64,000 nucleotides of DNA from Eledone cirrhosa (Eukaryota). Below are positions 5,935 through 26,600 of the stretch, piece by piece. Made by a program: the position numbers and the translations under genes. The notes below the pieces were generated by a model that was not told where the DNA came from, searched no databases, and saw nothing but the letters and a program-made list of their open reading frames with translations. Positions within the stretch are counted from its first letter, which is position 1. The number at the start of each line of letters is the position of its first letter. The DNA is taken from NCBI GenBank assembly GCA_964016885.1, contig OZ024742.1, positions 72,974,001-73,038,000 on the forward strand, read 5' to 3'.

Positions 5935-6453
5935 GAAAACCACCCGAAGGGTGTTTTTCTGCTAGTTATATTACATGAGTTTAAAAAAAAGAGTTAATAA
6001 ATAAATAAAACGTTATACTTGTTTTACCCTCCCATTTCCAATTAAATCGAACGCTATCATGACTGTATGTGTTTGTTTGTGTAAATGTATATGTGTGAAT
6101 GTATGTATGTTTGTGTGAAAGTATGTGTGAATGTATGTGTATTTGTGTGAATTATGTCCGTGAGTGTGTATTTTTATAAGTTTGTGTTTGCGCGATTATA
6201 GCTATATACTCATACATATAGATGTATGTGCACACTCATACGCATCACTGTGTAGAAAATCATAATCTCTCTATCTCTCTCATCACACACTCTCTCTTTA
6301 TATATCTGTTAGAACACGAAAAGTGTGAAACAACAGAATGTTCACTTTTCGTGTTCTAACATATATGCGTAACTTCTTCATAAATTTTCCGGGGATAGCC
6401 GTGGTGGTGGTGATCGTATGTCATTGGCTAATTTTCAACCAATCAGAGTAAGT

Positions 6454-6509
<56 letters not shown>

Positions 6510-7890
6510 TATTCCCCCTCTCTCTATATATATCTTACGCTTTCGCTTTACACTCCTCCCCTTCAATAACATATTTCCCCCTCTCTATATATCTCTTATA
6601 CTGTTACACTTATATTTCCATTTATTTATTACCCCCTCTCTCTATATCTCTTCCACTGTTACTTACGCCTGTTTCTCTCTATCTGTTCCGTCTCTATATA
6701 TATCTCTCTTACTCTTTCGCTTTGCACTCCTCCCCTTCAATACCATCTCTCCCCCTCTCTATATATTTGTTACTCTATCGCTGCACGCTCCTCTCCTTCA
6801 ATATATCAATTACACACTTACGCTTTACACTCCTTTATCCCCAGCGCCCCTATATATACCCCCCCCCCCGCATCTATATTTTAATGTTCCGTTGCACCGT
6901 GAATATATGTGTCTATATATATATACATATATATTGTATATACACATTCATGTATGTGTATACACACTCATGTACACTGGTTTTATGTGTGTATTGTAAA
7001 TTTGTACTGTTAAAACACGAAACTAACATTCGATTGACACTTTGATTACCTGTACAGGCAATAGTTATTAGAATGCTGTTGAAGTGTGTATATATTTTTG
7101 GGGGACATCCTGTATATACACACATTATATATAATACAATAAACAGATAAATACACACATATATATATGAGCTTATTTAATTATAAATATTGTGAATTTT
7201 TAACTCAGTTCAATTATATATATAAATGGCTTCTACAGGACTAGAACTGTTTCATTCGAAAGAAATCATCATAATATTGAGAGGGGGGACTAGATAAAAT
7301 ATTTCAAATCAAATGTGTATAAGTTATAAGTTAAAATGTATAAATAGAGACGATAGTGGAGGTATATATGTTTAGTGGAACAGTAGACGATAGAATTAAA
7401 TACAGACGAGAATCTCCCTTTAATGAAACAGCAGACGATAGAAGTAAGGCAATTTAAATTTTAAGCATTTGCATTTTTGCCTTTCATCGTTACGGGGTCG
7501 ATAACATAAAGTACCAGTAATACACTGTCACTATAAGTAGACGACTTTCAAATTGAATTGTTGGTTCCATTTCTTTAGTATTTTCAATTGTAGTTATCTA
7601 CTTAAAAAGCGTTACACGGTTAGAGACATAATTGGTAAGTTATATCTTCCCTATTAAACCATTGCATTATTTCGCCTACAATAGAACAAAAATGAAATGT
7701 TCTTTAAAGAAACAGGAATATAACTTTATAAAAAAAAAAAGTTGCATCCGCTTCTTTTATCATTGATAATTTTTTCGTTTTAATATTAATTGTTTTTTGT
7801 AGTTGTTTATATTAAAAATCTTACTGTAATATTTACTTAAACGAAGGCAGACATCTAAACTTATAGATTAATCTTGAGCGAAGGACTAGA

Positions 7891-7955
<65 letters not shown>

Positions 7956-7956
<1 letters not shown>

Positions 7957-8169
7957 AACGAAGAATGATAAAATTTCAAGCAAAGAGTTTAATTAGGTAA
8001 TGACTTACAAATTTGTTTCAGTATATATTTAATATAATATTAATATATTTTGTAATATTATTAACTAATTATTATAATTAGCGCTTCAGGCTTTGTCTAT
8101 ATACTGAAACAAATTTGTAAGTCATTACCTAATTAAACTCTTTGCTTGAAATTTTATCACTCTTCGTTT
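7956..8169. repeat. 72-bp inverted repeat (7956-8027 / 8098-8169) between (TA)n tracts
   Basis: AAACGAAGAATGATAAAATTTCAAGC...GTATATA is mirrored by TATATACTGAAAC...TCTTCGTTT with 1 mismatch. Confidence 0.9.
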
Positions 8170-8257
8170 TGAATTTCTCATAAGTATTCAATACTCTGTT
8201 GAGAAATACATTTTACATAAACAGTCTTTGTACCATTTATACGGTATTAATTACTTA

Positions 8258-8304
<47 letters not shown>

Positions 8305-8388
8305 CGTATGATTAGAACTGTGTTTATTATTAATATTTTAATGGATTTAATGAAAAATTTTAGGTGTTCATATATATATTCTAAAAAT

Positions 8389-8444
8389 GCGCGAAATCGT
8401 GAATCCGCGATAGTTGAACCGCCAAGTAGCGAGGTATCACTGTA
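8389..8444. mobile_element. Tc1/mariner Tigger/pogo-like terminal inverted repeat remnant
   Basis: Reverse complement TA|CAGTGATACCTCGCTACTTGGCGGTTCAACTATCGCGGATTCAC resembles Tigger TIRs (CAGTGGTCCCTCG...TCGCGGATTC), with a TA target. Confidence 0.6.
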
Positions 8445-8470
8445 TATATGTTTAAATATATAGTGTAGCT

Positions 8471-11400
8471 GTGATGTATCTCGCGAGTGAATCGAGACCT
8501 GTCACTGATTTTGGTGTCCCCACTGCCGATGTGAATGAGCAACGCTGCACTTGTGAATTGGGTCTTGATGTTGCAGGCAGTTCATATACTTACAAAGATG
8601 CGGTCCCACAAGCTTGTTCACATTCCTGTGCTAATAATCTAGATGGGCGTATTAAATCGGATGTGAAAGCAGCTTACCGGATGCGGAATCGGGAGAAGTT
8701 GAGACAAAAACAGGCCGATTATAGAGCTGTGAATTTTGCTAAATTAACACAAAAACAGGCCAAGTATAGATGTTCAAAACGGTATGAGTTGGCAAACAAG
8801 CAGGCCAAGTATAGATCTGCAAATTCAGCTATTATATCTCAAAAGCAAGCCGAGCGTAGAGCTTCTAAACGTACCGAGTTGGCTAAAGAGCAGACCAAGT
8901 ACAGATCTGTAAATCAAGACAAAGTATTACAAACAAAGGCTATGTATAAAATTCACCATAAAGATAATATACAGTCTTATGAGAAAACATACTATAAAAA
9001 AAAGTTTCTTCATAAGCGGTCTTTGTATCAAATGAAGAAACTAAATAAAATGGTTGACTTCCGGATGCAGCATCAGATCTTGATGTCCCAATTTGTTAAG
9101 TCATATAAAAAGACAATAACAGATACCAATCTTCGCAACGACGCACATAGTCACGTGCTGAGTGTGTTCTCCAGATCTGTTGGGATGCGAAATTTTGTGT
9201 GTGCTCAATTAAAAATAAATGTTAAAGCTGTGCATACATTGATGGAAAAGGTCAATGCTAACGGTTTGTTGCATTATTGGGGAAATCAACATTATCACAG
9301 TTCCACCAATGAGCTTCCTAATTTTGACAAGAGCACTGCAAAGTACATGAAAATGGATGAGTTTAAAAATCAGTCCGTTGAGAAAGTCCGAATAGTCGTT
9401 ATCAATAATGAGGAGACAGACAACATTGTGAATGACATGGCTAATGCTGACGAGCAGAATGATGATAATGATGTGTCTAAATGTTTGGTTAGACCTTGCG
9501 GGTCTTCCATATTAGATACATGTCCAAATGACTCAGCTGCTCGTCTAACTTTGTGCCAAAGAATTGATGATAAACTTCCAAAACTCAATCCCGATATGAC
9601 AGTTGCTGAAATAAGGCAGTTGATCGAGAAATATGAGTTTTGCAATGTTACTCATGATAATGATCAGCACTGCATCGGTCAAACTGGCTGCACCAGTGAA
9701 TTTGGCTTTTTAAAATTCATAGCAGTTCACTCGCCAAAGTTGCGCACATTGCTGAGGAAAATTTATAAAGTTCGGTCCTTATGTATTTGGCTCAACAAGT
9801 ACAATGAAGCTGTTTTCAATGGCGATTGGACCAACTTTGAGAATTTGACAGACGTTGCCAACATTGAGCGTGCTATTGCAGTTAAATTCAATAATATGTG
9901 CACTGGTTTCAATGATGTCGAACACACTGATGCAGATGTCATTCATAAATATGGTAATCAAGTTCAAAGATTTCAATCTGAAATTACCAACTATAAAATC
10001 CAACATTGTCATATCTGCAAACTGCGCAAATATAGCAAGGAACTAAAAGTTTGGGATAATTGGAACTCTAGATATTTTAAAACGGCCATTGCAAAGGATG
10101 CAATAACTGCCAACTACTCTTTGCCTTGCACAGTCTGCACAACATGCACTACACATTTGCGCAACAGTGGGGTGCCTTCAATGGCCTCAATAAATGGCTT
10201 GGGCGTTGCTGCCGTTCCCAAAGAACTTGCTGATCTTAATACATATGAGCGAATACTTGTACAACGGGCCAAATGTTTCGTCAATGTAATAAAACTGGTG
10301 CCATACTCATTCAAAGGCAATATTTCAGCATGCATTTCCGCTATTAAAGGAATTGCAATTCACTTGCCTTTGCCTATGGACGGAACTATTAACCGCACCA
10401 TGGATACGTTACCTGCGCTTCAAGACGACATGCTTAAAATAGTCGTTGATAGCTTGCCTTCGCGGAAACAAATTATCTGGCGTTCAATGGTAGACATGAG
10501 TAAAGTATTGAAGGCACTTGATTGGCTTGCAGCAAACAATGTAATGTATGCCGATGTTAAGATCAATCGCTACGCCGATACGGAAAATGAAAACATTGTC
10601 GAGTGCTCGGGAGTTAATAATGCCAAATTCGATAATCTTTTACTTAAATCGAATGCTGGCATTACCTATGAGCATCACACTGTTAAAGACATGAATCTGT
10701 GTCTCCCTGCAGACACTGACTTGGCCTTGTACAAAATGAAAAGAGTGGAAGGCGATTTAATTGCAGACAATGATAAAAAACTTGAGTTGTTGTGCTTTCC
10801 TTGTCTTTATCCAACTGGTCAGTTTGGCATTTTCGTGGACAATAGACCGTTTGGCGCTGTAAAGCCATACATGTTCATAAGAAACAGACTGAATCATAGC
10901 GACTCTAGATTTCGGCGAGATATACAATATCTCATGTTTTGTCTTGATAAAGCCGACAAGAGAGGCATTGATTCTGGTATATATGCCATCATGAAGACCA
11001 CCAAAAACAGCCGCATGACTATAAGCGAGTTTAGAAGGCGGCTTCATGAAAATGACAGGCACCTAGAGGGCAATTTAAATATGATGATGGCCAATGTCCG
11101 TGGTTCCAAGCAGTTTTGGTCTAGAAAATGTTCAGACTTGATGGCTATGGACGAGAAATTTGGCCCGGCCCACTTGTTCTTAACTTTGTCTTGTGCAGAG
11201 TACTTTTGGCCTGATCTGAGAGAGTTCCTGGAAAAGTTGAATGCTGACATACCAGACATTTCTAGAAAACGCACCAATGAGTTGTGCGCGGATGACGTGG
11301 TGGCTGTTAGCGAACATTTTCACCATCGGTTCACCACCTTTATGAAAGAAGTTGTTAAACATACCAATTCTCCGTTTGGTATTGTCGAGCACTTTTTTTG

Positions 11401-14400
11401 GAGGTTGGAATACCAAATGAGAGGTGCTCCGCATGTTCACATGAAATTATGGATTAAAGATGGCCCTATTATGGACAGAGACGACAAGTATGCTATTCAG
11501 ACGTTTATACAGTCCATGATCACATGTCGCATGCCGTCCAATGTAGAAAGCCCCGTTTTGTCAGACTTGGTGTTGCGTTTTCAACGACATGTCTGTAGTG
11601 GATCCTGCAAAAGGCAAATATTTTCGAGTGGTCGTTTTTACACTCGATGCAGGTTTGGATTTCCTCGTCCTATCGGGAATTTCAATTTGCTTAGCGTCAA
11701 CGAGTGCATAAAATCTCGACACAAAGGTAGAGCTGTCAAAAAGTTGTACAAGCTTGACAGACGACAAGGGGAAGAGTGCATCAATGACTACAATCCTGTT
11801 GTTCTGTATGTCTGGAAAGCTAATGTCGATATCCAATACATCGGTGAAGATAGTATGATTCTAAACCGATATGTTACTAGTTATCAGACAAAGTCCGAAA
11901 AGACTGAAACTGAAGGTATTTGGGCTGAGATTGACAAGTCCAAGTCCATTTACTCCAGATACAAGAGTGTCGGACTTAAGCTGATGGGCAAGCGTGATAC
12001 AGGTGCCTATGAGGCTGCAGACAAATTGCTTGGCCACCATTTTTATGGATGCTCTGAAAACCTCATTTGGATTGGAGCCGATTTGCCTAGTTACCGATCC
12101 CACAGGTTCAGGCCTCAGTATGAACTGGATAAATTGAAACCGTATTCTACCGATCTTTATTACGAGAATATGGTCGAAAATTGGTATCCAAACAGGCCTG
12201 ATTCGATGGAGCACATGTGTTTGTATGAACTTGCGAGTAAATACGAACATGTGAATCCAATTGATACTAGCAATTTTGATGACGACTTCAGGTTGAGAAA
12301 TAATCTTGGCTATTTCAAATCTGTGAAAGAGCGGATTGTGAAGTCGCCAAACATTAGATTGACTGCAGATACCTGTGAGCGCTATCACCACAACCTGCTT
12401 ATGCTCTTTAAACCTTGGCGAGACGAGGAAAAAGACTTGCTGGGAGGTTGTGAGACTTATAAAGAGTCTTTTGAACAGTGCGCAAACCATTTATCTGAAA
12501 TGGTCAAGTTCCAGAATGTGCGCAAACGTTTGGAGAATGCGCTGGAACAAGCCAAACATATTCCAAACGAACCTCAGTCTCATGATAATGATGACCATTC
12601 TTGCGGTGATCACATGGAGGCGTTGGCAGTTGATGATGCTAATGTCGATTTGCCTTGCATGAGAGATGTCGCTGAGGATGCACTGAGGCATAAAGAAAAT
12701 AAACTGAATGAAGTGCAAAGAAAAATTTATGACCATATCGTTGCCGGTATTGACAAACAAGACAAACATTGGGACAACAGCAAACCTTATCCGAGATGTA
12801 GTTGCGATGATTGTCCACAAGTCTTGAAATTTGTTTCAGGTGTTGGTGGCACGGGCAAGAGTTTTTTGATAAATGTACTGGCTGATAAAATTCAGTACAT
12901 GTATCCAAATGACAATGGCCCGAGCGTAGTGATATCGGCACCCACAGGAATGGCTGCTTTCCAACTCAACGGCATGACTGTTCATCGAATGCTAAAGCTC
13001 AAAGTGCAGTACGGTAAAACTCCCGTGTACGATGATCTACCAAAGGACTTTTTGAAAATGCTGAGGATGGGGCTTCAATATGTCCGACTGATCATAATCG
13101 ATGAGATTAGCATGGTCAGTCATTTGCAGTTGGCATTCATTCACTTGAGATTGTGCCAATTGTTTTGTGACTTTGCCCAAGGCATTTCTCCTTTCGGGCG
13201 AATGAACATTGTTGTTTTGGGAGATTTGCTTCAATTACCGCCTGTTAGAGAAAAGCCGGTGTTTAACAAAGTTACTCACCAAGATGCACAAAGATCATGC
13301 ATAGGCGTCAGCAGCCACCATTTGTGGAGGTACTTCAAGTACGACGAGTTGACAGTCAACATGCGTCAGAAAGAAGACTTGGATAATTATGTTGACATGC
13401 TCGGCCGAATAAGGCTGGGTTCACCACTTGATTCAGATATTGAAATTCTAAATAAGCATAGAATTGATCTCAACGGCAAAGCTTCCATTGATCAGGTTGC
13501 TTACAAAATGTGTGGGCTGATACAGACTTCTAATTTGAGTATCGTCTGTATCATGCCTCTAAACGAGTCAGTAGAAAAGTTTAACGCTGCAATGCTCAAT
13601 AAACTTGGCATTAATACCGTTGAACTTATGGCTATTGATTCGAATATGAGGCAAACCAAATGTCAAAAGAAAACAAAAAGAAAAAAGCTGACCACTAAAA
13701 AGACTTCTGATACTGCTGGCCTTGAAACTGTTCTTAAAGTTGGCGTTAATGCTCGAGTTATGCTTAAACGCAACATCGATCTTGAGAAAGGCTTGTGCAA
13801 TGGTGCAATGGGAACTGTAAAGCAACTCAATTATGAGTTTGGAAAAATTACTTCCATTGACGTTCTCTTTGAGAGTACAAACCAAATTGTTGCCATCAAA
13901 CGTGTCAAAGCCGATTACGAATTGTCTCCTAGTGTTTTTATCACTAGAGAACAATATCCCTTGTGCATTGCATATGCAATTTCCATCCACAAATCACAGG
14001 GAATAAGTGTCGATGGAGTCGTTGTTGATTTGGGCACTGGCGTTTTTGCAGACGGTATGGCCTATGTAGCCTTGTCTAGAGCCCGCAAACTGTGCAATGT
14101 TTACTTGATTGATCTTGATCCAACGAGTTTGATCATGTGCGACTCTAGTGCTTGGAGAGAATACAATTATTTGAGAGAGACCATTAATATGGGACCGCTT
14201 CCATTGTGTAACGTGAGGCCCAACAGTATTGGACAGGCCAAAAAAGCAACTAAAAAAAGTAAATTTGCTATTAATATTGACAGTGGAATGGTCAACTTGG
14301 CGAATCCAAAAAAGGCCAGAACTGAGAAAACGGTTGCAAAGCCGTACATTTCGCTGATCAATGAGAGAAATGCTTGCTTTGTAAACAGCACCATGCAAGT

Positions 14401-15193
14401 TATACGCCAGCTGGTGTTGTTGGTTGAACACATTCAGTCCACCGATGATGTTGCTATTCGTGAAATTAGCGATATTATATCGTCATCTGGAACTAAATCG
14501 GTCGCAAATTTGAGAAATATCCTCGGCGGCAGGTTTAATGATGGTACCCAACAGTGTGCGCACGATTTTTGGAAGCACATTTATCAGTTGTTCTCTAAAA
14601 AAATTAAACAACTATTCACCTTTGAGGAAAATACTTGGCTCAGCTGCACTAGAAAACACGAGCACAATTGCCCCAGATTGCACAATGATGAATGTTATTG
14701 TGCATCGATCAACGGCTGTGGCACTTGCACACATATAACTGATGTCAAGTCTGATCTGACGTTGCAGCCTGTTAATGGTCGGCAGCAATTCAAAAGCTTG
14801 CTCAAAACTGATGTTTCGCTCATTAAGAGATGCGATCTGTGTGGCATTGACACCGAGCACTTTGGTACAGTTAACCATGTATTTCCAAACACAATGCGTT
14901 ACTTGGTTGTTTATTTGAATAGATTCGAATATACAAACAATCAGATGATCAGAATTGATTCTGAGTTGATGAATTTCTCTCCGAACAAGCAGAGCATTTA
15001 CGGCCAAAAATTCCGACTAATCGGCTCCGTCTTGCATTCACTGGCTAGTGCAGACTCCGGGCACTACACCAGCATCGTCCGCAATCAGGACAGATGGGAC
15101 ATTATTAACGATGCCGTCTTTTCCAAGCAGTATATAGGTTTCCCGTCGAAACTGCTTAACAACTACATGTTGTTTTTAGAAAAGTTGAATTGA
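8471..15193 (+). CDS. Helitron/Helentron RepHel transposase (HUH Rep + Pif1 SF1B helicase) with C-terminal ubiquitin-specific protease (peptidase C19) domain
   Basis: Rep motifs: GPAHLFLTLSC (~11162), EYQMRGAPHVH (11408-11440), YVTSYQTK (11870-11893). Helicase motifs: GVGGTGKS (12839), APTGMAA, IIDEISMV (~13100), GDLLQLPPV, NMRQ, GLCNG, HKSQG (13988), YVALSR. USP motifs: LINERNACFVNSTMQ (Cys codon at 14375), QQCAHDF, LNRF, HSLASADSGHY, WDIIND, YMLF. No stops over 6.7 kb. First ATG at 8474. Confidence 0.93.
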   Translation: MMYLASESRPVTDFGVPTADVNEQRCTCELGLDVAGSSYTYKDAVPQACSHSCANNLDGRIKSDVKAAYRMRNREKLRQKQADYRAVNFAKLTQKQAKYRCSKRYELANKQAKYRSANSAIISQKQAERRASKRTELAKEQTKYRSVNQDKVLQTKAMYKIHHKDNIQSYEKTYYKKKFLHKRSLYQMKKLNKMVDFRMQHQILMSQFVKSYKKTITDTNLRNDAHSHVLSVFSRSVGMRNFVCAQLKINVKAVHTLMEKVNANGLLHYWGNQHYHSSTNELPNFDKSTAKYMKMDEFKNQSVEKVRIVVINNEETDNIVNDMANADEQNDDNDVSKCLVRPCGSSILDTCPNDSAARLTLCQRIDDKLPKLNPDMTVAEIRQLIEKYEFCNVTHDNDQHCIGQTGCTSEFGFLKFIAVHSPKLRTLLRKIYKVRSLCIWLNKYNEAVFNGDWTNFENLTDVANIERAIAVKFNNMCTGFNDVEHTDADVIHKYGNQVQRFQSEITNYKIQHCHICKLRKYSKELKVWDNWNSRYFKTAIAKDAITANYSLPCTVCTTCTTHLRNSGVPSMASINGLGVAAVPKELADLNTYERILVQRAKCFVNVIKLVPYSFKGNISACISAIKGIAIHLPLPMDGTINRTMDTLPALQDDMLKIVVDSLPSRKQIIWRSMVDMSKVLKALDWLAANNVMYADVKINRYADTENENIVECSGVNNAKFDNLLLKSNAGITYEHHTVKDMNLCLPADTDLALYKMKRVEGDLIADNDKKLELLCFPCLYPTGQFGIFVDNRPFGAVKPYMFIRNRLNHSDSRFRRDIQYLMFCLDKADKRGIDSGIYAIMKTTKNSRMTISEFRRRLHENDRHLEGNLNMMMANVRGSKQFWSRKCSDLMAMDEKFGPAHLFLTLSCAEYFWPDLREFLEKLNADIPDISRKRTNELCADDVVAVSEHFHHRFTTFMKEVVKHTNSPFGIVEHFFWRLEYQMRGAPHVHMKLWIKDGPIMDRDDKYAIQTFIQSMITCRMPSNVESPVLSDLVLRFQRHVCSGSCKRQIFSSGRFYTRCRFGFPRPIGNFNLLSVNECIKSRHKGRAVKKLYKLDRRQGEECINDYNPVVLYVWKANVDIQYIGEDSMILNRYVTSYQTKSEKTETEGIWAEIDKSKSIYSRYKSVGLKLMGKRDTGAYEAADKLLGHHFYGCSENLIWIGADLPSYRSHRFRPQYELDKLKPYSTDLYYENMVENWYPNRPDSMEHMCLYELASKYEHVNPIDTSNFDDDFRLRNNLGYFKSVKERIVKSPNIRLTADTCERYHHNLLMLFKPWRDEEKDLLGGCETYKESFEQCANHLSEMVKFQNVRKRLENALEQAKHIPNEPQSHDNDDHSCGDHMEALAVDDANVDLPCMRDVAEDALRHKENKLNEVQRKIYDHIVAGIDKQDKHWDNSKPYPRCSCDDCPQVLKFVSGVGGTGKSFLINVLADKIQYMYPNDNGPSVVISAPTGMAAFQLNGMTVHRMLKLKVQYGKTPVYDDLPKDFLKMLRMGLQYVRLIIIDEISMVSHLQLAFIHLRLCQLFCDFAQGISPFGRMNIVVLGDLLQLPPVREKPVFNKVTHQDAQRSCIGVSSHHLWRYFKYDELTVNMRQKEDLDNYVDMLGRIRLGSPLDSDIEILNKHRIDLNGKASIDQVAYKMCGLIQTSNLSIVCIMPLNESVEKFNAAMLNKLGINTVELMAIDSNMRQTKCQKKTKRKKLTTKKTSDTAGLETVLKVGVNARVMLKRNIDLEKGLCNGAMGTVKQLNYEFGKITSIDVLFESTNQIVAIKRVKADYELSPSVFITREQYPLCIAYAISIHKSQGISVDGVVVDLGTGVFADGMAYVALSRARKLCNVYLIDLDPTSLIMCDSSAWREYNYLRETINMGPLPLCNVRPNSIGQAKKATKKSKFAINIDSGMVNLANPKKARTEKTVAKPYISLINERNACFVNSTMQVIRQLVLLVEHIQSTDDVAIREISDIISSSGTKSVANLRNILGGRFNDGTQQCAHDFWKHIYQLFSKKIKQLFTFEENTWLSCTRKHEHNCPRLHNDECYCASINGCGTCTHITDVKSDLTLQPVNGRQQFKSLLKTDVSLIKRCDLCGIDTEHFGTVNHVFPNTMRYLVVYLNRFEYTNNQMIRIDSELMNFSPNKQSIYGQKFRLIGSVLHSLASADSGHYTSIVRNQDRWDIINDAVFSKQYIGFPSKLLNNYMLFLEKLN

Positions 15194-16683
15194 ACTTTCA
15201 CCGCCAATGTACAGCAGCAAGCATTTTTTGAAAAATTTGCTTGATCCTAAGAAAAAGTAACAGAGGTTGAGAGATGTCTTGTTATCTCTAACTATTGCTT
15301 TATTTCTATTTCTTTAGGGCATTTCTGAATTTATTGGAATATGAATCCAGTCCCACCATTGAGATATATTATCTTCATGGTGAATGTCTGCTGTTTTTTT
15401 ACCCTCGGGAAATTGTGAAATTGGTTTGCAGCTACTATGGCCTTTTGAGATATAATATTGAAAACACATGTCACTCAACCATATTCTTGTGTCTATTTTG
15501 TCACTGAACTATACTCTCCGTATGATATCAATTTTTATGTATTATAATTTTATCAATATTTTATCTTAAATTAAGCATATTTTTATCTATTATTATCTAA
15601 TTTTATAAATCTTTTATTTTTTATCCATTATATCAACTACTTTCAATGTTGTATTATATTTTAAATTCCAATGTATTAATTTTTGTACCAGAAACTCTCT
15701 AGCGCTTTAGCATTTAAAGAGACCATATCCGACCATAATTCTCTCGCCTCTTTCTATTCAAACTGGCCATAATTAGCCACTCATACTGATAGTAAGGTAT
15801 TTTTCTCAAAATAAATAACATAAAACTCTCGTAGATTCAATATTATATGAGATAATTATATAAGGTAAAGCCTTTTATGTGAAAATACATACACTATTTT
15901 TGTGCCTTTTTTATCAACACAAAAATCCTCTGATACTTTGGATTAATATGGCTGACTAAAATTATATATCTGCACATTGTGTGGTGTCAACTATATTTTG
16001 TTTTGTATTTTATGCTTTCTTTAAACATTTTTTTTTTAGTCTTATATTTTAAAAATATATTAAAATAAATTATAAACGTTTTTTATTTACATATCTTTAT
16101 AATGCACCTTCCAATATTGATTGTAACGTTTATTTACTTTTATATGAATGATATAGTTAATAGTTACTTGTCCATTTGCCAATATGCTTTTGTAAAAGTA
16201 ATTATTAACTATTATATATTAAATTACAAGATTTATTTATATAACATGCTTATAATATTGGTTGTATCATATTTACTTGTATATTTGTCTATATTGTTTG
16301 TTTTGTGTTAAATTATTTTATTATTATTATGTTGGATTATTTTTTTTATTATTATGTTAAACTATTTGTATGTAATATTTAATTTTTTTATTAATTCAAC
16401 TATAATAATCGACATATGAAATTTAAATCAACAATAGGAGAAAAAAAAATATCTTATTGCACAAACAATAATTCTGCACAAATGTTGCTCCATTATTAGA
16501 TCTAATGTTGCAACGATACAGTTAAATGTTGTCTGTGTATTTTAAAAAAGATTTGCTTATAATCTTTTCAAATTTCATTACGCCAATGATTCAAGCTCAA
16601 ATTGACATTATCTAAAAAATTGTACAAACAGCGGTGGATTAGCAGTAGTGAACAGATAAATCAGTCAATTTATTAAGATTGAC

Positions 16684-17335
16684 TTGGCATCAATCAGCAA
16701 AACCTTCATTAGCTGCTCTCCAGCCATCTATTTAAAGCTGTATACATCTATGGTACGAATACACTTGGAGTTCGCGTCATCAGTCTGGAACCCCTATCTT
16801 GCTCAGAACATTGACCTCCTGGAAACTGTTCAGAGACATGCAACCAAGCGCATACCCTCCATCAGACACCTACCATACCCTGAATATTTTGCTTCCCTCT
16901 GGCAATGGACTTGGTAAACACCCACAAAGTTATTAACCATCCGACCAACAACAACCCCGAACACCTTTTTGATCTCCATGTGTCTAACACGTGGACATGC
17001 CTACAAAGTCAGAAAACAACACAGCTCCCATGACTTTAGGAAATATTTCTTCATGCTCAGAGTTGCTGAAGGATGGAACAAACTTCCTGCATCAGTTGTT
17101 AGCTGATGACACACTGCATCCTTTAAAACCATCATACATTCCGAAATACACCAAAACTACACCTGATGTCCCCCTTCCATACACATGCACATATGTGTAT
17201 ATCATGACTCATGCACTGTTCTTTTTTCCTGACGTTTTTATATTACCCTATGTATTATATATGCACTTTTGATGAGTTGTAGTGCACCTCAGCATTGTAC
17301 ACAATATTTTCATTATTATTATCATTATTATTATT
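16684..17335 (+). mobile_element. 5'-truncated CR1-clade LINE (C-terminus plus 3' UTR)
   Basis: LYTSMVRIHLEFASSVWNPYLAQNIDLLETVQRHATK matches the CR1 ORF2 C-terminal consensus. Ends in an (ATT)n tail. Confidence 0.85.
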
Positions 17336-17794
17336 ACACTCATTGATCCATTTTGCACTAACTCTGCATCAAGCACCCTCACCTAAATATTAACCAATCA
17401 AGGATCCAATACAGCTATCTGTTGGATGAGTATTGTATAGTGCCAAAAACGAAACCAATCAGTTTAGCAGAAAGTTTCCAGACAAGAAACACGCATATTT
17501 TGCTATCCTCAAACACGTTTACACATGGCATGAAATATAACTAATCCGAGATGGCTAGGTTTCATCTTCTAACTGGATATACGAAATCCATTATGTCTTG
17601 ACAACAACATGAGGTAACATTATGTTATTCACAGACACACTTTGTACACTGTTCCATATCAGAATGTATTTCCTTCGTCACATTCACAAACAGTATTGAA
17701 AATATGTTCTTCGGCAAATAAAAATGTTTTGTTCATAATATTTCAACTAGCGATTGCTCTACTCCACGCACGACCACCATAAATTAATGACCAG

Positions 17795-17975
17795 CTCAAC
17801 ACAAGTATTGGTAGAGCGTCAGACACCATGCTTTGCAGTATTGTTATGGTCCTTTGCATTCTAAGTTCAAATCCTGCCGAGGTTAACTTCGACTTTCATA
17901 CTTACTAATTCGATAAAATAAAGTACCAGTAATGGACTGCCGTAATGGATTTGTGCCGAAAAATAGAAACACTAT
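17795..17975 (+). mobile_element. Diverged tRNA-SINE copy
   Basis: AGTTCAAATCCTGCCGAGGTTAACTTCGACTTTCAT...AAAGTACCAGT; same family as 18610. Confidence 0.7.
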
Positions 17976-18334
17976 TAATGTGCAATAAGAGCAACATATT
18001 ATTAACTAAGTGAAATAGCGTAAAAATAAAGGCTTCGTTGGTTTAAGCTATTTTTATAAAGGATGCCACAGATGTACGATATATAATGATTACAATATTT
18101 TTTAGCAACAACTCTAGTCCCACACTTTTGAAGGTTTATTATAACATTCTGTGGCACTTTTGAGCTTGCGCATTTTTCATGTCTAGTATATATATATATG
18201 GTAGTTGAAGTGGTGGTGGTGGCGACGATATACCGGAAGTGCAACTTTGAAAAGAAGTCAATTTTAGATTATTTATTTTTACGAAATTTTTTGTTTACGA
18301 AATTTAGCACATAAATTATGTAATATTCATTCAT

Positions 18335-18466
18335 TGTCCCTTTATGATCTGAGTTCAAATCCCGCCGAGGTTGACTTTGCCTTTCATCCTTACGGGGTCG
18401 ATAAAATAAAGTACCAGTAATGCACTGGGTAATTGCTGGCCTTGTGCCTAAAGTAGAAACAATTAT
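18335..18466 (+). mobile_element. 5'-truncated tRNA-SINE
   Basis: Near-identical to the 3' part of 18610-18798. Confidence 0.85.
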
Positions 18467-18609
18467 TTATTCAAAGTAATCCAATTTATTATACGAACTG
18501 GATTAAAAGAAATAAACCGTACGCAGTCGCGCAGCCCTTGCTTTATTATAGTTTGGATGATTTTAATAACCTCTGTCATTTTCGTTCTACTAATTTATTT
18601 ACATTATTC

Positions 18610-18798
18610 TCGGTGGATTGGCAGTATCGGTAGAGGGTCGGACGCCATGCTTTCCAGCATAGTTACGTCCCTTTACGATCTGAGTTCAAATCCCGCCGAG
18701 GTTGACATTGCCTTTCATCCTTACGGGGTCGATGAAATAAAGTACCAGTAACGCACTGGGTAATTGCTGGCCTTGTGCCTAAAGTAGAAACAATTATT
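18610..18798 (+). mobile_element. Full-length tRNA-derived SINE
   Basis: A-box TGGCAGTATCGG, B-box GAGTTCAAATCC, conserved body GCCTTTCATCCTTACGGGGTCGAT, (ATT) tail. Further copies or fragments at ~7473, 23277, 23715, 45445, 45561 and 48001. Confidence 0.88.
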
Positions 18799-20087: not shown

Positions 20088-21566
20088 TCACAGAGAAGTC
20101 TGTTTAAATGGTAACACTTTTGATTTAAAGGGTCTTGTACAACTATTCCAGTTACTTGGCGATATATTCCTTCCAGTTTCATAAACATATCTAGAATTTT
20201 TGTCATTTGGATTTACAATAATATTTGTATTTTTGTCTTTGCTGTTAAAGTTCAAGTCACATGATCTATTGTCATGGGTATCTGTTGAGAACCAACTGGA
20301 GTCTGAATATATGCTTAATTGTCGCCGTCCTCTAGGTGTGCTAGCAACTGACGCTCCGTAACCCTCATCGGAAGTGAAACTAAGATTATCTCCCTTTGCA
20401 ATATGGAAACTTCTATTTTTGTCATTGTCCATTTGAGAAGGATGTTTTGTTGGTGTTCTGCTATTCTCGTATTTAAAAATATTCTGATTTTTCAATTCTT
20501 CGGGATAGCGTTGTGTATTGTTGTTTATCATGTCTCTCTTTCTCATATATTCCGACATATTGTTCTTGTCAAGACTTCTTGTATTTCGAGAGGCAGAACT
20601 CTCTAGAGGAATGTTCTTTTTGTTCTCTTCCTCGAGTTTTGAATTTTGTGAAAATTTTTGTGTCTGACTTAAATTTTCTTTAGAATTGAACGTGCGATCA
20701 AATGGTTTTCTACTTAAATCACGACTTTCAGAGTCTTTATCAACGTGTCGCTTAGTCCTATTAATATCACTTTGCGGCGTATATCTATTTGTGTGTCTAT
20801 CATTTACTTGTGCAATATTTACTTGTTGTGTTACTGTTTTTGGTTCTTCTGGAGTTGATTTCATTTGACAAGGCGAAGACTCAAATCTTCTACAGCTGAG
20901 TTTCTTGAAACTAGAACTGCTGGCTCGCCTTTGTAAAGATTCTGGCTGAGAAACTCGATAATCCTTGTTATAGTTCATACCCACAGTAAATGAGCTCCGT
21001 CTGTTAATTTTAACCTCTTTAGAGACCCCAAGACAGTTGCAGATCTGGTTTTTTGTCTTCGTACTGCTTACATCTCTCTGGCTGTTGGTGCCGTCGGCGT
21101 GTCTTTTGTCATCCTCGTCAATCTTCAAATGATACTGACGTAAAACAGCATGCATGGGACTCGGGTACTCCCTGCTTGCTGTCAAAGGAGACATTTCTCC
21201 TTTTTGCTTCGTAAGTACAGCGTGACATTGAAAACTAGCTCTGCGCATAGTAGAGAAAGTCTCTGATTGGCTGTGAATATTCTCCAAAGGATTCCTCCAT
21301 TCTACCAGTTTGTTCGATTCACGTCCTAAATCATAGCGGAAACTATCAGATCTCCGAGAATGCTCCAGTCCGGGATAACCGGAAACACTGACTGGTCGTT
21401 TCATGTGACGTCGATAATTCACTTGAATATTGTTATTTGTTGTCTGCCATGATGGGTTATGTGTCACAGTTGACCGACTGCTTTCTTCTTTCACAGATTC
21501 CTCACTAATTCTCTCCAGGTTCGTCACAGACAGACGATTGCGGCAGTTGGACAACCATTCGTAAGC
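20088..21566 (-). CDS. Large terminal coding exon of an unidentified host gene (disordered S/R/K/N-rich tail ending KQTSL)
   Basis: ~490 stop-free non-repetitive codons preceded by a strong acceptor (CTCTTTTTTGTTTTCTTGTTTTTCTTTGCAG|GCTTAC, phase 0). Stop at 20088. The ORF extension through (TTA)n is intronic. Confidence 0.8.
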   Translation of the reverse strand, partial: AYEWLSNCRNRLSVTNLERISEESVKEESSRSTVTHNPSWQTTNNNIQVNYRRHMKRPVSVSGYPGLEHSRRSDSFRYDLGRESNKLVEWRNPLENIHSQSETFSTMRRASFQCHAVLTKQKGEMSPLTASREYPSPMHAVLRQYHLKIDEDDKRHADGTNSQRDVSSTKTKNQICNCLGVSKEVKINRRSSFTVGMNYNKDYRVSQPESLQRRASSSSFKKLSCRRFESSPCQMKSTPEEPKTVTQQVNIAQVNDRHTNRYTPQSDINRTKRHVDKDSESRDLSRKPFDRTFNSKENLSQTQKFSQNSKLEEENKKNIPLESSASRNTRSLDKNNMSEYMRKRDMINNNTQRYPEELKNQNIFKYENSRTPTKHPSQMDNDKNRSFHIAKGDNLSFTSDEGYGASVASTPRGRRQLSIYSDSSWFSTDTHDNRSCDLNFNSKDKNTNIIVNPNDKNSRYVYETGRNISPSNWNSCTRPFKSKVLPFKQTSL

Positions 21567-21674
21567 CTGCAAAGAAAAACAAGAAAACAAAAAAGAGTCA
21601 ACTAAGGATTTAAAAAATAGTATATAATCGACTGTAAGGCGTGTCTGAGGACTCTGCTCCCAAGGACTTCTCGG

Positions 21675-21726
<52 letters not shown>

Positions 21727-21727
21727 T

Positions 21728-22712
21728 TCTTTATTGGCCACAAGGGCTGACATCAAGAAAAACATCACAGACGGAACAGGACGGTACGATGTGGGTTTTG
21801 TGCGTGTAAATATTTTTATTATTTATATAAGAAAAGAAACAAGACATAAAATATATATATAAGACATAAACAATAAAATGAAAATTGAAACAATGAAAAA
21901 TTCCCCAATAGGGGGGAAACCTCCGAGGGTTACTCGTGGCGAAAACCACACAAAAGACCACGGCCACCCTGACTACCAGGGCAAGCGCCCTCTCTCAATT
22001 TTCCATCTCTCAAACTACAGACGTATATTCGGACCATTCTCGCTACATTCACCCACCTTTCAACAAACTTGCCTCTCCACCCTGATTTTCCTCTTCAAGT
22101 GAAACTTGAAAAAGTTAATCAGGGATTCGCCGAAGAGGAAAGTGTTTGTTTTTAATCCTTTTAACCTTGTCCACCACACAATCTCTTTCGCCATGGCCAC
22201 CAGGCAGATGAAAACCGCCTGCCCTTCCTCCTCAAAGGAAGACGGCGAGACCAACTGCACAATGGACTCAGTCGACAACTGGATCAGTCCCACACGTGAC
22301 AGCAACTGTTCGACATAGCTCCACAAGTCAGCAATGCTCGGGCACTGAACGAGTGCGTGCACAACGGTTTCGTCGCTATGCGCGCATCTCGGACAGGCTC
22401 GGCTGACGGCACTACCGTGCCTGTAGAGCTTATCTCGAACCGGCAGCGCTCCCGGGTAGCACTGACTGCCAGGCCAGGGATTTTTGGAAGTTATCCATAG
22501 GCCCCGGGCTGAAAGTTCTCCGGAAGAGAGCAAGCAGCTGATCTTCTTCGGCACCCAGGATCTCTCCGAGAACGTCGTCGCTCTTCCCCTCCACTAGTCC
22601 TCTATAGAACACCGAGGTGGATGTTCCACCGATACTGGTGCCCAACTGGGAGAGGGCAGTGAGCGCCTGGAGACATTCCAGTTTCCAAGCGCTATCCCTC
22701 GGTCTTTTTCTG
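21728..22712 (-). mobile_element. 5'-truncated Tx1/L1-clade LINE (zf-RVT C-terminus plus 3' UTR)
   Basis: ALPVRDKLYRHG...CPRC...ETVVHALVQCP (CCHC knuckle). AATAAA precedes the (TTA)n tail; (TAA)n on both sides. Confidence 0.85.
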
Positions 22713-23878: not shown

Positions 23879-26600
23879 CACACACACATACAGATATATA
23901 TTACACACACACACACATACAGATATATATTACACACACACACACATACAGATATATATTACACACACACACACATACAGATATATATTACACACACACA
24001 CACATACAGATATATATTACACACACACACACATACAGATATATATTACACACACACACACATACAGATATATATTACACACACACATACAGATATATAT
24101 TACACACACACATACATACATACAGATATATATTACACACACACATACAGATATATATTACACACACACATACAGATATATATTACACACACACACACAT
24201 ACAGATATATATTACACACACACACACATACAGATATATATTACACACACACACACATACAGATATATATTACACACACACATACATACAGATATATATT
24301 ACACACACACATACAGATATATATTACACACACACATACAGATATATATTACACACACACATACAGATATATATTACACACACACATACATACAGATATA
24401 TATTACACACACACATACAGATATATATTACACACACACATACAGATATATATTACACACACACATACAGATATATATTACACACACACATACAGATATA
24501 TATTACACACACACACACATACAGATATATATTACACACACACACACATACAGATATATATTACACACACACACACATACAGATATATATTACACACACA
24601 CACACATACAGATATATATTACACACACACATACAGATATATATTACACACACACATACAGATATATATTACACACACACATACAGATATATATTACACA
24701 CACACATACATACAGATATATATTACACACACACATACAGATATATATTACACACACACATACAGATATATATTACACACACACATACAGATATATATTA
24801 CACACACACATACATACAGATATATATTACACACATACAGATATATATTACACACACACATACAGATATATATTACACACACACATACATACAGATATAT
24901 ATTACACACACACATACAGATATATATTACACACACACATACAGATATATATTACACACACACATACAGATATATATTACACACACACATACAGATATAT
25001 ATTACACACACACATACATACATACAGATATATATTACACACACACATACAGATATATATTACACACACACATACATACAGATATATATTACACACACAC
25101 ATACAGATATATATTACACACACACATACAGATATATATTACACACACACATACAGATATATATTACACACACACATACAGATATATATTACACACACAC
25201 ATACAGATATATATTACACACACACATACAGATATATATTACACACACACACACATACAGATATATATTACACACACACACACATACAGATATATATTAC
25301 ACACACACATACAGATATATATCACACACACACACACATACAGATATATATTACACACACACATACAGATATATATTACACACACACACACATACAGATA
25401 TATATTACACACACACATACAGATATATATTACACACACACATACAGATATATATTACACATACACATACATATATATATTACACACACACATACAGATA
25501 TATATTACACACACACATACAGATATATATTACACACACACACACATACAGATATATATTACACACACACATACAGATATATATTACACACACACATACA
25601 CAAATATATATTACACACACACATACAGATATATATTACACACACACACACATACAGATATATATTACACACACACATACAGATATATATTACACACACA
25701 CACACATACAGATATATATTACACACACACATACAGATATATATTACACACACATACAGATATATATTACACACACACATACATACAGATATATATTACA
25801 CACATACAGATATATATTACACACACACACACATACAGATATATATTACACACACACATATATATTACACACACACACACATACAGATATATATTACACA
25901 CACACATACACATACAGATATATATTACACACACACATACAGATATATATTACACACACATACAGATATATATTACACACACACATACATATATATATTA
26001 CACACACACATACATATATATATTACACACACACATACAGATATATATTACACACACACACACATACAGATATATATTACACACACACATACAGATATAT
26101 ATTACACACACACATACAGATATATATTACACACACACACACATACAGATATATATTACACACACACATACAGATATATATTACACACACACATACAGAT
26201 ATATATTACACACACACATACAGATATATATTACACACACACATACAGATATATATTACACACACATACAGATATATATTACACACACACATACAGATAT
26301 ATTTTACACATACATACACATACAGATATCTATTACACACACATATATATATATTACACATACACAAATATCCATTACACACACATACAGATATCTATTA
26401 CACATATACACACATGAGATATCTATTACACCCACATACAGATAGCTATTACACACAGAAAGACATCTATTAACACACAGTGAGACATCTATTACATCAA
26501 TTTAGATATCTATTACTCACACACACACAGATATCTATTACACACACAAAAAGACTATCTGTTACACACACACGAAGCATATCACACACAGTATCTGTTA
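23879..26600. repeat. Minisatellite, unit (AC)4-6-ATACAGATATATATT, decaying at its 3' end
   Basis: Direct inspection. Confidence 0.95.

Follow-up and report, generated by a model that had tools for sequence, protein, structure and literature searches.

According to the 2024 HELIANO survey (PMC11417382), UCH (PF00443) is a stably captured domain of HLE2 elements and a marker of subgroups c and d; the survey puts it among domains 'encoded in different ORFs' and takes DUF6570 as the HLE2 marker domain. Helitron VTD deubiquitinases are active and cleave K48 linkages, and were suggested to spare transposition proteins from proteasomal degradation (Erven 2022, PMC9741609). The HUH Rep forms a covalent 5′-phosphotyrosine intermediate with DNA, and Helraiser, an HLE1 element, transposes in human cells (PMC5876387). 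In vitro, SPRTN is brought to a viral HUH–DNA adduct through PARP1 (bioRxiv 10.64898/2026.01.09.698661), and DNA–protein crosslinks are cleared via SUMO–RNF4 (PMC8441304).

Here, we describe an HLE2-type rolling-circle transposon without an AP endonuclease, whose single transposase ends in a ubiquitin-specific protease (USP) domain (Table 1). It lies in a window of 64,000 nucleotides from Eledone cirrhosa (contig OZ024742.1, positions 72,974,001–73,038,000). USP-bearing Helitron-like elements were largely known already: the domain, which the original prediction did not recognise as an established accessory, is recorded as separate ORFs in HLE2 c/d (PMC11417382). What is new here is that USP and transposase are fused in frame, that nested lineages have an OTU or Ulp1 protease in the slot of the USP, and that TC...CTAG ends accompany an HLE2-type transposase. 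No paper in the literature covered describes or assays an in-frame USP; one may be recorded in subscription journals, Repbase Reports or the HELIANO figures (7, 8, S9–S11).

Table 1. Features of the element, in window coordinates
Feature	Position	Strand	Basis or remark
Whole element, 5′-TC ... CTAG-3′	6305..18186	+	flanks diverge at identical bases in 11 other copies
Strong 5′-terminal hairpin	6307..6361	+	23 base pairs, −21.3 kcal/mol as DNA
RepHel–USP transposase ORF	8474..15193	+	open from 8456; 2,239 aa from first Met at 8474
Five basic repeats, N-terminal region	8703..8913	+	45 bp (15 aa) each
DUF6570, HLE2 marker domain	10169..10567	+	Pfam E 1.9e-17
HUH Rep endonuclease, Helitron_like_N	10874..11884	+	Pfam E 1.9e-28
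Rep motifs	HUH 11420-11440; two-tyrosine 11870-11884	+	motif scan
Pif1-type SF1B helicase	12818..14110	+	Pfam PIF1 E 2.4e-24, Pif1_2B, UvrD_C_2
Helicase motifs	Walker A 12839; Walker B 13091; motif VI 14063	+	
Basic linker, helicase to USP	14111..14332	+	
Compact USP/C19 domain, 286 aa (thumb, fingers, palm)	14333..15190	+	profile, AlphaFold model, structure matches
Oxyanion Asn codon	14360	+	
Predicted catalytic Cys	14375..14377	+	Cys in 38/45 aligned rows; 39/40 own-genome loci
QQ box	14549	+	motif scan
Four zinc-ribbon cysteines	14645..14842	+	codons 14645, 14717, 14831, 14840
LNRF box	14912	+	motif scan
Predicted catalytic His, GHY box	15062..15064	+	39/42 rows
Third (Asn) and fourth (Asp) critical residues	15107..15112	+	codons 15107/15110
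3′-terminal segment, ends CTAG	18001..18186	+	

A single frame joins Rep, helicase and USP

A single frame of 2,245 codons without a stop encodes the transposase (window 8456–15193, + strand). As originally predicted, a complete USP follows the helicase in frame, with all quoted motifs present in order; the Cys codon was correctly placed at nucleotide 14375, while the residue numbers given for it and its partners were one too high (C1968, H2197 and N2212/D2213, counted from Met 8474). A two-tyrosine HUH Rep fused to a Pif1 helicase—with motifs that, as in this family, we take to be catalytic—dispersed copies and the lack of a target-site duplication place the element among Helitron-like transposons, and DUF6570 within the transposase places it with HLE2. 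Pfam scans of the window transposase found no Exo_endo_phos (AP endonuclease) domain, the C-terminal hallmark of strict Helentrons; the USP fills that slot, directly after the helicase and up to the stop codon, as had been proposed. Since the RepHel–USP frame is intron-free genomic DNA, a gene-model fusion artefact was rejected for the window.

The USP domain has an intact-looking catalytic set

Pfam UCH (PF00443) matched the domain over model positions 3–252 of 254 (E 1.3e-12; 48.3 bits against a cut-off of 23.9). An AlphaFold2 model from a 45-row alignment reached a pLDDT of 90.2 and a pTM of 0.88; a model from the single sequence (pLDDT 33.5) was discarded. The retained model has a USP fold, with USP21 as top Foldseek match (E 2e-19) and a VIA-align superposition on USP2 at Z 26.4 (rmsd 2.1 Å, 259 residues aligned), and VIA-align rows 1–35 were USP-family folds throughout. 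Profile and structure thus agree with the domain assignment originally predicted.

Cys, His, Asn/Asp and the oxyanion Asn are all present and conserved, so that the catalytic set looks intact as far as sequence can tell. The zinc-ribbon cysteines are kept in 44/44, 45/45, 45/45 and 45/45 alignment rows, in codon order, the second being counted from a MAFFT alignment rather than the profile alignment. Among relatives, the third critical residue varies between D, N and S and the fourth is Asp in 52 of 60 domains with Cys and His; in several USPs, catalysis can rest on this fourth-residue Asp (PMC10867860). A predicted complex of the domain with host ubiquitin (0.70, with the control at 0.56) speaks neither for nor against binding. 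The Asp of the QQD box, which contacts the ubiquitin tail, is replaced by Cys in the window USP (intact domains: Asp 44/60, Cys 8/60). The window USP is very probably an active isopeptidase.

The element is young and its USP is under purifying selection

The Cys-box region recurs at 98–100% identity in 19 genome places, the window included, and 6 of the 18 other copies have full-length frames, making at least seven with the window. These near-identical places, and the USP following the helicase in the copies fetched from the genome, rule out misassembly or a private accident. The element is young, many-copy, recently active and autonomous. None of the sequencing-run matches listed for the stretch (4 rows, one study) was an RNA run.

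Differences among the 19 near-identical copies are few and shared, leaving dN/dS within them uninformative. Lineage-fixed USP changes gave a dN/dS of 0.32 (13 synonymous, 15 nonsynonymous; p=0.004), arguing against neutral evolution, which the original prediction had singled out as a check. Private post-insertion changes gave 0.71, not significant, and distant families 0.18–0.22, dS against families of ~50% identity being saturated. By the same lineage comparison, values were 0.09 for Rep, 0.20 for the helicase, 0.30 for the linker and 0.32 for the N-terminus; selection on the USP is thus weaker than on Rep and helicase and no stronger than on N-terminus or linker. Between element lineages, the USP domain is under purifying selection, and Cys, His, oxyanion Asn and fourth Asp are kept in all four own-genome families.

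Element ends and insertion site

The element sits between an A and a T, with no duplication of the target, and TA precedes TC in the window copy and in 11/11 others. The A^T target with TC...CTAG ends rests on one informative empty site, in a tandem array, where the empty-site join gives the commonest unit (97 of 160) solely for TC...CTAG and two other joins match 0 units. A hairpin comparable to the 5′ one was not found at the 3′ end (−6.3 kcal/mol). Inverted matches between the two ends reach no more than 10 nt (6333/18143), a length that chance may explain, as against subterminal repeats of 12–16 nt in HLE2. Other copies have ~1.3 kb that the window copy lacks at 17999/18000; in full-length copies, the 3′-terminal segment is one of the 213-bp inverted arms of a 957-bp unit.

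The slot behind the helicase is also occupied by OTU and Ulp1-type proteases

Using the USP region alone, a word-seeded search for homologs gave no match among 658 candidates; relatives were found by profile and whole-library searches. Of the 63 relatives that have room behind the helicase, 53 carry an in-frame USP, a share inflated by sampling proteins through similarity to a helicase+USP query. The fusion is therefore not private to the window, and within the present sample it contradicts the placement of UCH in a separate ORF. Spacing from motif VI to Cys is fairly steady (median 106 aa, range 87–175, n=75). Of 64 related proteins with the domain covered, 57 retain both Cys and His, the median identity between pairs being 19%; the other seven lack an intact USP. 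The USP co-diverges with RepHel, their identities co-varying across 29 proteins (Mantel rho 0.67, p=0.0002), and its acquisition at the transposase C-terminus was probably ancient. Single database proteins may be gene-model fusions: P0169 seems chimeric, and P0137 is a repeated unit.

A 48-protein Rep+Hel tree (quick LG+G4 search), built from proteins of the present sample, contains a 40-row endonuclease-less clade with 33 USP, 3 OTU, 2 Ulp1 and 2 truncated rows. A tree holding the USP rows together was rejected (p-AU 0.00045, 4 changes), the tested group having been set after a first tree was known. OTU or Ulp1-type proteases occupy the USP's slot in nested lineages. Eight long relatives lack an intact USP next to the helicase: profiles show another USP, OTU or Ulp1 domain in four, and in a fifth a Ulp1-like domain is recognisable by eye; the remaining three have no replacement and look truncated or chimeric. 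In the endonuclease-bearing relatives scanned, VTD/OTU sits N-terminal.

What the tethered USP may do

Proteins covalently attached to DNA are tagged by the host with SUMO or ubiquitin and then cleared through SPRTN or the proteasome. On our proposal, Rep would become covalently joined to DNA via a 5′-phosphotyrosine, and the host would tag the DNA-linked transposase with ubiquitin or SUMO for such clearance. The tethered USP would strip ubiquitin in cis from the transposase, chiefly while the latter is DNA-bound or covalently linked and unwinding the 12–13 kb element, so that it might last long enough to complete strand transfer. We put the whole explanation—an HLE2-type transposon with an ancient, intact-looking C-terminal USP deubiquitinating its own transposase—at about 0.5; given activity, we lean somewhat towards self-protection as the USP's main job. 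It is supported by fold and profile, Cys and His retention, selection, co-variation with RepHel and exchange in the slot, and a crosslink-protection mechanism is plausible, the Ulp1-type proteases in the same slot lending indirect support. Weaker selection on the USP than on Rep and helicase, the QQD Asp-to-Cys change and the relatives without an intact USP count against it. Helraiser, which is not known to have a deubiquitinase domain, transposes, so a deubiquitinase would not be required for rolling-circle transposition.

More tentatively, the large HLE2 clade might have an obligatory isopeptidase slot behind the helicase, ancestrally a USP and repeatedly refilled by OTU or Ulp1, that would erase the SUMO/ubiquitin marks of crosslink repair (SUMO–RNF4, SPRTN, p97, proteasome). 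Were this possibility true, crosslink repair would be an unrecognised anti-transposon defence and the isopeptidase domains a counter-defence.

It is unlikely, in our view, that the USP works on ubiquitin marks of chromatin (H2A/H2B) or replication (PCNA) around the donor or target site, so as to make access easier or direct gap-filling synthesis. A tether to a DNA-tracking helicase would suit this role, and USP16, Ubp8, USP1 and USP12/46 are among the structural matches (Z 23–26), with many USPs within a few Z units; given that SUMO marks silent chromatin, Ulp1-type replacements fit as well. However, the window protein has no PIP box, leaving the PCNA editing put forward in the original prediction without sequence support. 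PIP-like matches occur in only 2 of 40 endonuclease-less proteins; the 12 matches across 48 proteins (6.4 expected) lie mostly inside Rep of endonuclease-bearing elements. Pfam scans found no nucleosome-binding or ZnF-UBP accessory domain, and the USP/OTU/Ulp1 exchange suggests low substrate specificity.

It is quite doubtful that the USP acts in trans, in the manner of herpesvirus tegument DUBs, on factors with which the host signals or silences (innate DNA sensing, control of transposons in the germline). For VTDs, Erven et al. raise such a role and point to domesticated copies expressed in the male germline (PMC9741609), and HELIANO has many captured domains in separate ORFs (PMC11417382), but in-frame fusion in 53/63 relatives and the constrained linker length suggest action in cis, and a benefit shared with non-autonomous copies would be weakly selected.

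It seems improbable that the USP serves mainly to bind ubiquitin or as a structural part, or is a passenger, with catalysis dispensable: dead USPs in 7/64 relatives, zinc cysteines more invariant than the catalytic Cys and the changed QQD Asp in the window's lineage would fit, yet Cys, His, oxyanion Asn and fourth Asp are jointly retained at 19% median identity and in the own-genome families, and dN/dS is below 1. Self-cleavage of the polyprotein at Gly-Gly, as by coronavirus PLpro—which has a common fold with the USP model (Z 12–14)—is hardly credible, as none of the three GG pairs in the window protein lies in the N-terminal region or helicase–USP linker and the Rep–helicase pair is not conserved in relatives where the segment was located.

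If self-protection by the tethered USP is correct, host crosslink repair restricts rolling-circle transposons, and Helitron gene-delivery tools might become more efficient with an added deubiquitinase; if it is false, a minimal USP and a correction to 'UCH in separate ORF' still stand. The ubiquitin/SUMO proteases of Helitron-like elements come from at least four unrelated families (USP, OTU, VTD, Ulp1). With a compact, selected, in-frame USP of 286 aa and copies ~99% identical, the window element makes a survey-table entry a testable case, and a young family with several intact copies offers a natural, non-reconstructed test system.

Comparison with known systems

Cellular USPs (MEROPS C19: USP2, USP12/46, USP21, USP30) have the fold (Z 25–26, rmsd 2.1–2.4 Å), Cys and His boxes, zinc ribbon and ND pair in common with the window USP, which differs by an identity of only 18–22%, great compactness, the lack of accessory domains, the QQD Asp-to-Cys change and fusion to a transposase; SUMO-specific USPL1 matches less well (Z 18.1). 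VTD/OTU Helentrons (PMC9741609) likewise have a deubiquitinase with conserved catalytic residues inside the RepHel ORF, and a similar role has been proposed; their protease family is another one, and activity has been shown for VTD, whereas the window USP is known from sequence and model.

The ends resemble those of Helitron1/HLE1 (Helraiser) in 5′-TC, 3′-CTAG (CTRR in HLE1) and A^T insertion, while HLE1 has a hairpin before CTRR and a transposase without DUF6570, and the window element an HLE2-type transposase with DUF6570 and no strong 3′ hairpin. The 5′ stem-loop described for HLE2-reverse and proto-Helentron is also present, but proto-Helentron begins with TT. Closest are the HELIANO c/d HLE2 elements, mostly from lungfish and axolotl, which combine DUF6570, Rep and Pif1 with stable PF00443 and no AP endonuclease, as here (PMC11417382). 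In the text covered, the survey does not take up the catalytic residues, fold or selection of UCH; their UCH lies in an ORF apart from RepHel and they have a T-T insertion site and short inverted repeats, whereas the window element carries its USP in frame at the C-terminus, between TC...CTAG ends in an A^T site.

The transposase frame ends in a complete USP domain

The Helitron-like element encodes a single uninterrupted frame whose last Pfam domain, behind the helicase, is a ubiquitin-specific protease (USP; UCH/PF00443). All motifs quoted in the original prediction, which had proposed a Rep–helicase transposase fused to a complete USP domain, were found in this frame, with its residue numbers one too high when counted from the first Met. 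Compared alone with Pfam UCH, the C-terminus gave an E-value of 1.3e-12 and covered model positions 3–252 of 254. Structure prediction agreed with the proposed fold: an AlphaFold2 model built on a 45-row alignment (pLDDT 90.2, pTM 0.88) had USP21 as its top Foldseek match (E 2e-19), and exhaustive VIA-align comparison returned USP2 (Z 26.4, rmsd 2.1 Å, 259 residues), SUMO-specific USPL1 (Z 18.1) and viral papain-like proteases (Z 11–14); a PDB sequence search gave weak USP matches (best E 2e-4). The feature is real, and its C-terminal domain is predicted to be a complete, compact USP fold. We put the probability that this domain is active at about 0.85.

Features of the window (window positions, or transposase residues where marked aa)
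Feature	Position	Strand	Remarks
Helitron-like element	6305–18186		ends set by flanks of 11 copies
Inverted repeat	7956–8169		72 bp, 99% complementary, 70-nt spacing; 5′ non-coding part of element
Insert upstream of ORF	8312–8414		~100 bp; common to 4 of 19 young copies, missing in most others
Transposase ORF	8456–15193	+	2,245 codons, no stop
DUF6570	aa 572–704		Pfam
Helitron_like_N	aa 807–996		Pfam
PIF1 and associated helicase models	aa 1455–1883		Pfam
UCH/PF00443	aa 1967–2228		Pfam
Catalytic Cys codon	14375	+
Catalytic His codon	15062	+
Asn/Asp codons	15107/15110	+
LINE-like fragment	16683–17336		3′ part of element; judged by eye, 81% to locus L053
SINE-like repeat	17804–17971		short, 3′ part of element; also 18336–18467, 18611–18798 and many loci
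Site of lost segment	17999/18000		1.2–1.3 kb
Low-complexity open frame	20088–21752	−	554 codons, Ser/Arg/Asn-rich; Pfam scan without convincing match; possibly a host exon
Penelope-like retroelement ORF	56857–59520	−	reverse transcriptase E 1.8e-11, weak GIY-YIG
Partial tandem copy of Penelope-like ORF	60287–61171	−
Satellite arrays	48–1851, 23879–26573, 38295–43350, 50118–53983, 61142–63995		periods 49, 25/54, 21, AT-rich, 28 bp; explain most long spurious ORFs of the window

A young family retains the USP under selection

In the 3.0-Gb genome (1,796 contigs), the first 100 aa of the USP domain matched at least 70 loci. Nineteen, the window included, matched at 98–100% over the whole query, seven of them within open frames of 2,230–2,245 aa, and the fusion thus recurs outside the window. 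The 40 of 70 matching loci retrieved for comparison fall into a young family (~99% DNA identity), one subfamily (~90%) and two or more families sharing 40–55% protein identity. In all these groups the USP follows the helicase; the catalytic Cys is kept at 39 of the 40 and the His at all 36 loci covering that region. A 5′-end query yielded 712 first-look candidates, and all 40 that were scored proved 99–100% identical, which suggests that copies far outnumber those with a USP match.

When the count was restricted to codons at which the ~90% subfamily and the young family show a fixed difference, dN/dS was 0.32 for the USP (13 synonymous, 15 nonsynonymous; p = 0.004), so that neutral evolution between element lineages was not borne out; the corresponding values were 0.09 for Rep, 0.20 for the helicase, 0.32 for the N-terminus and 0.30 for the linker. 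Private post-insertion changes were near neutral (USP 0.71, p = 0.15). For independent pairs drawn from the distant families, USP dN/dS was 0.41–0.57 (unfiltered, broken copies) and, where the pairs were deep (dS near 2), 0.18–0.22. The USP is maintained by selection, less tightly than the Rep/helicase core.

HLE1-type ends on an HLE2-type transposase

One copy lies within a tandem array, where joining its flanks gave the commonest unit (97 of 160) only for TC...CTAG termini at an A^T site; two alternative joins matched none of the 160 units. Because this join, the one informative empty site on which the assignment is based, fits only TC...CTAG between A and T, the element combines an HLE2-type (DUF6570) transposase with HLE1-type end dinucleotides. 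TA invariably precedes the 5′-TC (ends 6305–6361 and 18183–18186; loci L061–L080), and a strong hairpin sits at the 5′ end, whereas the 3′ end lacks one. This combination was not found in the accessible part of the HELIANO text, a survey of Helitron-like elements (PMC11417382).

All ten retrieved copies have an extra 1.2–1.3 kb (1657–2933 in locus L062) that the window copy has lost; in L062, the segment contains the 3′ end repeated in inverted orientation, so that a 957-bp unit flanked by 213-bp arms results.

Related proteins point to an ancient capture and exchange of the slot

The helicase end plus USP was searched against 1.8 billion cluster representatives. Among the best 150 matches listed, 63 relatives continue for 250 aa or more beyond helicase motif VI, and 53 of these matched, in that region, a USP profile built on 24 sequences, namely 23 of the matches plus that of the window. 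As an independent check, Pfam UCH was run on the 17 longest and matched 13 of them (E ≤ 1e-4). A profile search added 40 further long proteins, with whitefly, ant, psyllid, parasitoid wasps, lacewing, ctenophore and bivalves as named sources. Cys and His are kept in at least one domain of 57 of the 64 proteins covering both catalytic columns (median identity 19%). Across 60 domains, Asp (23), Asn (20) and Ser (12) alternate at the third catalytic position, and the Asp after it is kept in 52, a pattern that fits the fourth-residue catalysis described for USP1, 15, 40 and 48 (PMC10867860). Since identity in the USP rises and falls with identity in RepHel (Mantel rho 0.67, p = 0.0002, over 29 proteins; nearest neighbour shared in 15 of 29), the sequences point to one ancient USP capture followed by mostly vertical descent. 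Tandem USP domains behind the helicase occur in P0098, P0159 and P0137; in P0098 (Bemisia tabaci, CAH0382899.1) the catalytic Cys is missing from the first domain but the second one is complete, and in P0140 the N-terminal USP is intact and the C-terminal one dead.

A quick LG+G4 tree of Rep plus helicase covered 48 long proteins, sampled with a USP-containing query and rooted on eight Helentron-type rows (in seven, Pfam or visual inspection shows an endonuclease; the eighth is truncated). The other 40 formed one clade (SH-aLRT 100), in which 33 proteins have a USP in the slot after the helicase, three an OTU and two a Ulp1/C48 domain, with two truncated. OTU and Ulp1 rows are nested among USP rows, implying four changes, and a forced USP grouping, in a comparison whose group was named only after a first tree, was rejected (p-AU 0.00045). 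Eight long proteins have a non-intact helicase-adjacent USP: four carry a second USP, OTU or Ulp1 by profile, a fifth does so by eye, and the remaining three showed no substitute domain and look truncated or chimeric. Repeated Ulp1-like domains located N-terminally in RepHel are seen in P0157, P0164 and P0170 (Pfam C48 match in P0170, the others by eye).

Possible roles of the USP

HUH nucleases bind DNA covalently through a 5′-phosphotyrosine and Helraiser behaves as expected (PMC5876387), a circovirus HUH–DNA adduct recruits SPRTN via PARP1 in vitro (bioRxiv 10.64898/2026.01.09.698661), and another route of crosslink clearance runs through SUMOylation, ubiquitylation by RNF4 and the proteasome (PMC8441304). 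A helicase-tethered isopeptidase might erase such ubiquitin or SUMO marks in cis, a role that fits a slot next to the helicase which takes isopeptidases of either the ubiquitin or the SUMO type. Against it stand the Cys that replaces the QQD-box Asp in the window's lineage and the dead USPs among relatives; moreover, Helraiser transposes and is not known to carry a deubiquitinase domain. Counter-defence against host crosslink repair, as the original prediction envisaged, is a tentative function of the slot isopeptidases, judged less likely than not.

Action in trans on host signalling and editing of chromatin or PCNA marks are less probable alternatives. A search for a PIP box found none in the window's protein. 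Self-cleavage at a Gly-Gly site finds little favour, as the search revealed no conserved site.

Comparison with known elements

The original prediction did not regard a USP as canonical in such elements, a view overtaken by HELIANO. In its accessible parts, that survey names 20 domains as stably captured, UCH/PF00443 and Peptidase_C48 being two of them (Table S11). UCH is nearly confined to HLE2, where subgroups c and d are enriched for it, and is counted with domains in ORFs other than RepHel, on which the preprint agrees; in the window's element, in contrast, the USP is in frame with RepHel. Erven et al. (PMC9741609) showed activity of Helitron VTD deubiquitinases and suggested that these shield transposition proteins from proteasomal degradation. 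Neither an in-frame USP nor activity of that USP was found in the literature searched, in which most subscription journals and Repbase Reports are not represented. Already in print, then, are the USP–HLE2 association and the general protective idea; what the window's element adds is the in-frame fusion, the evidence for selection and slot exchange, the atypical termini, and a young family whose intact copies make USP function directly testable.
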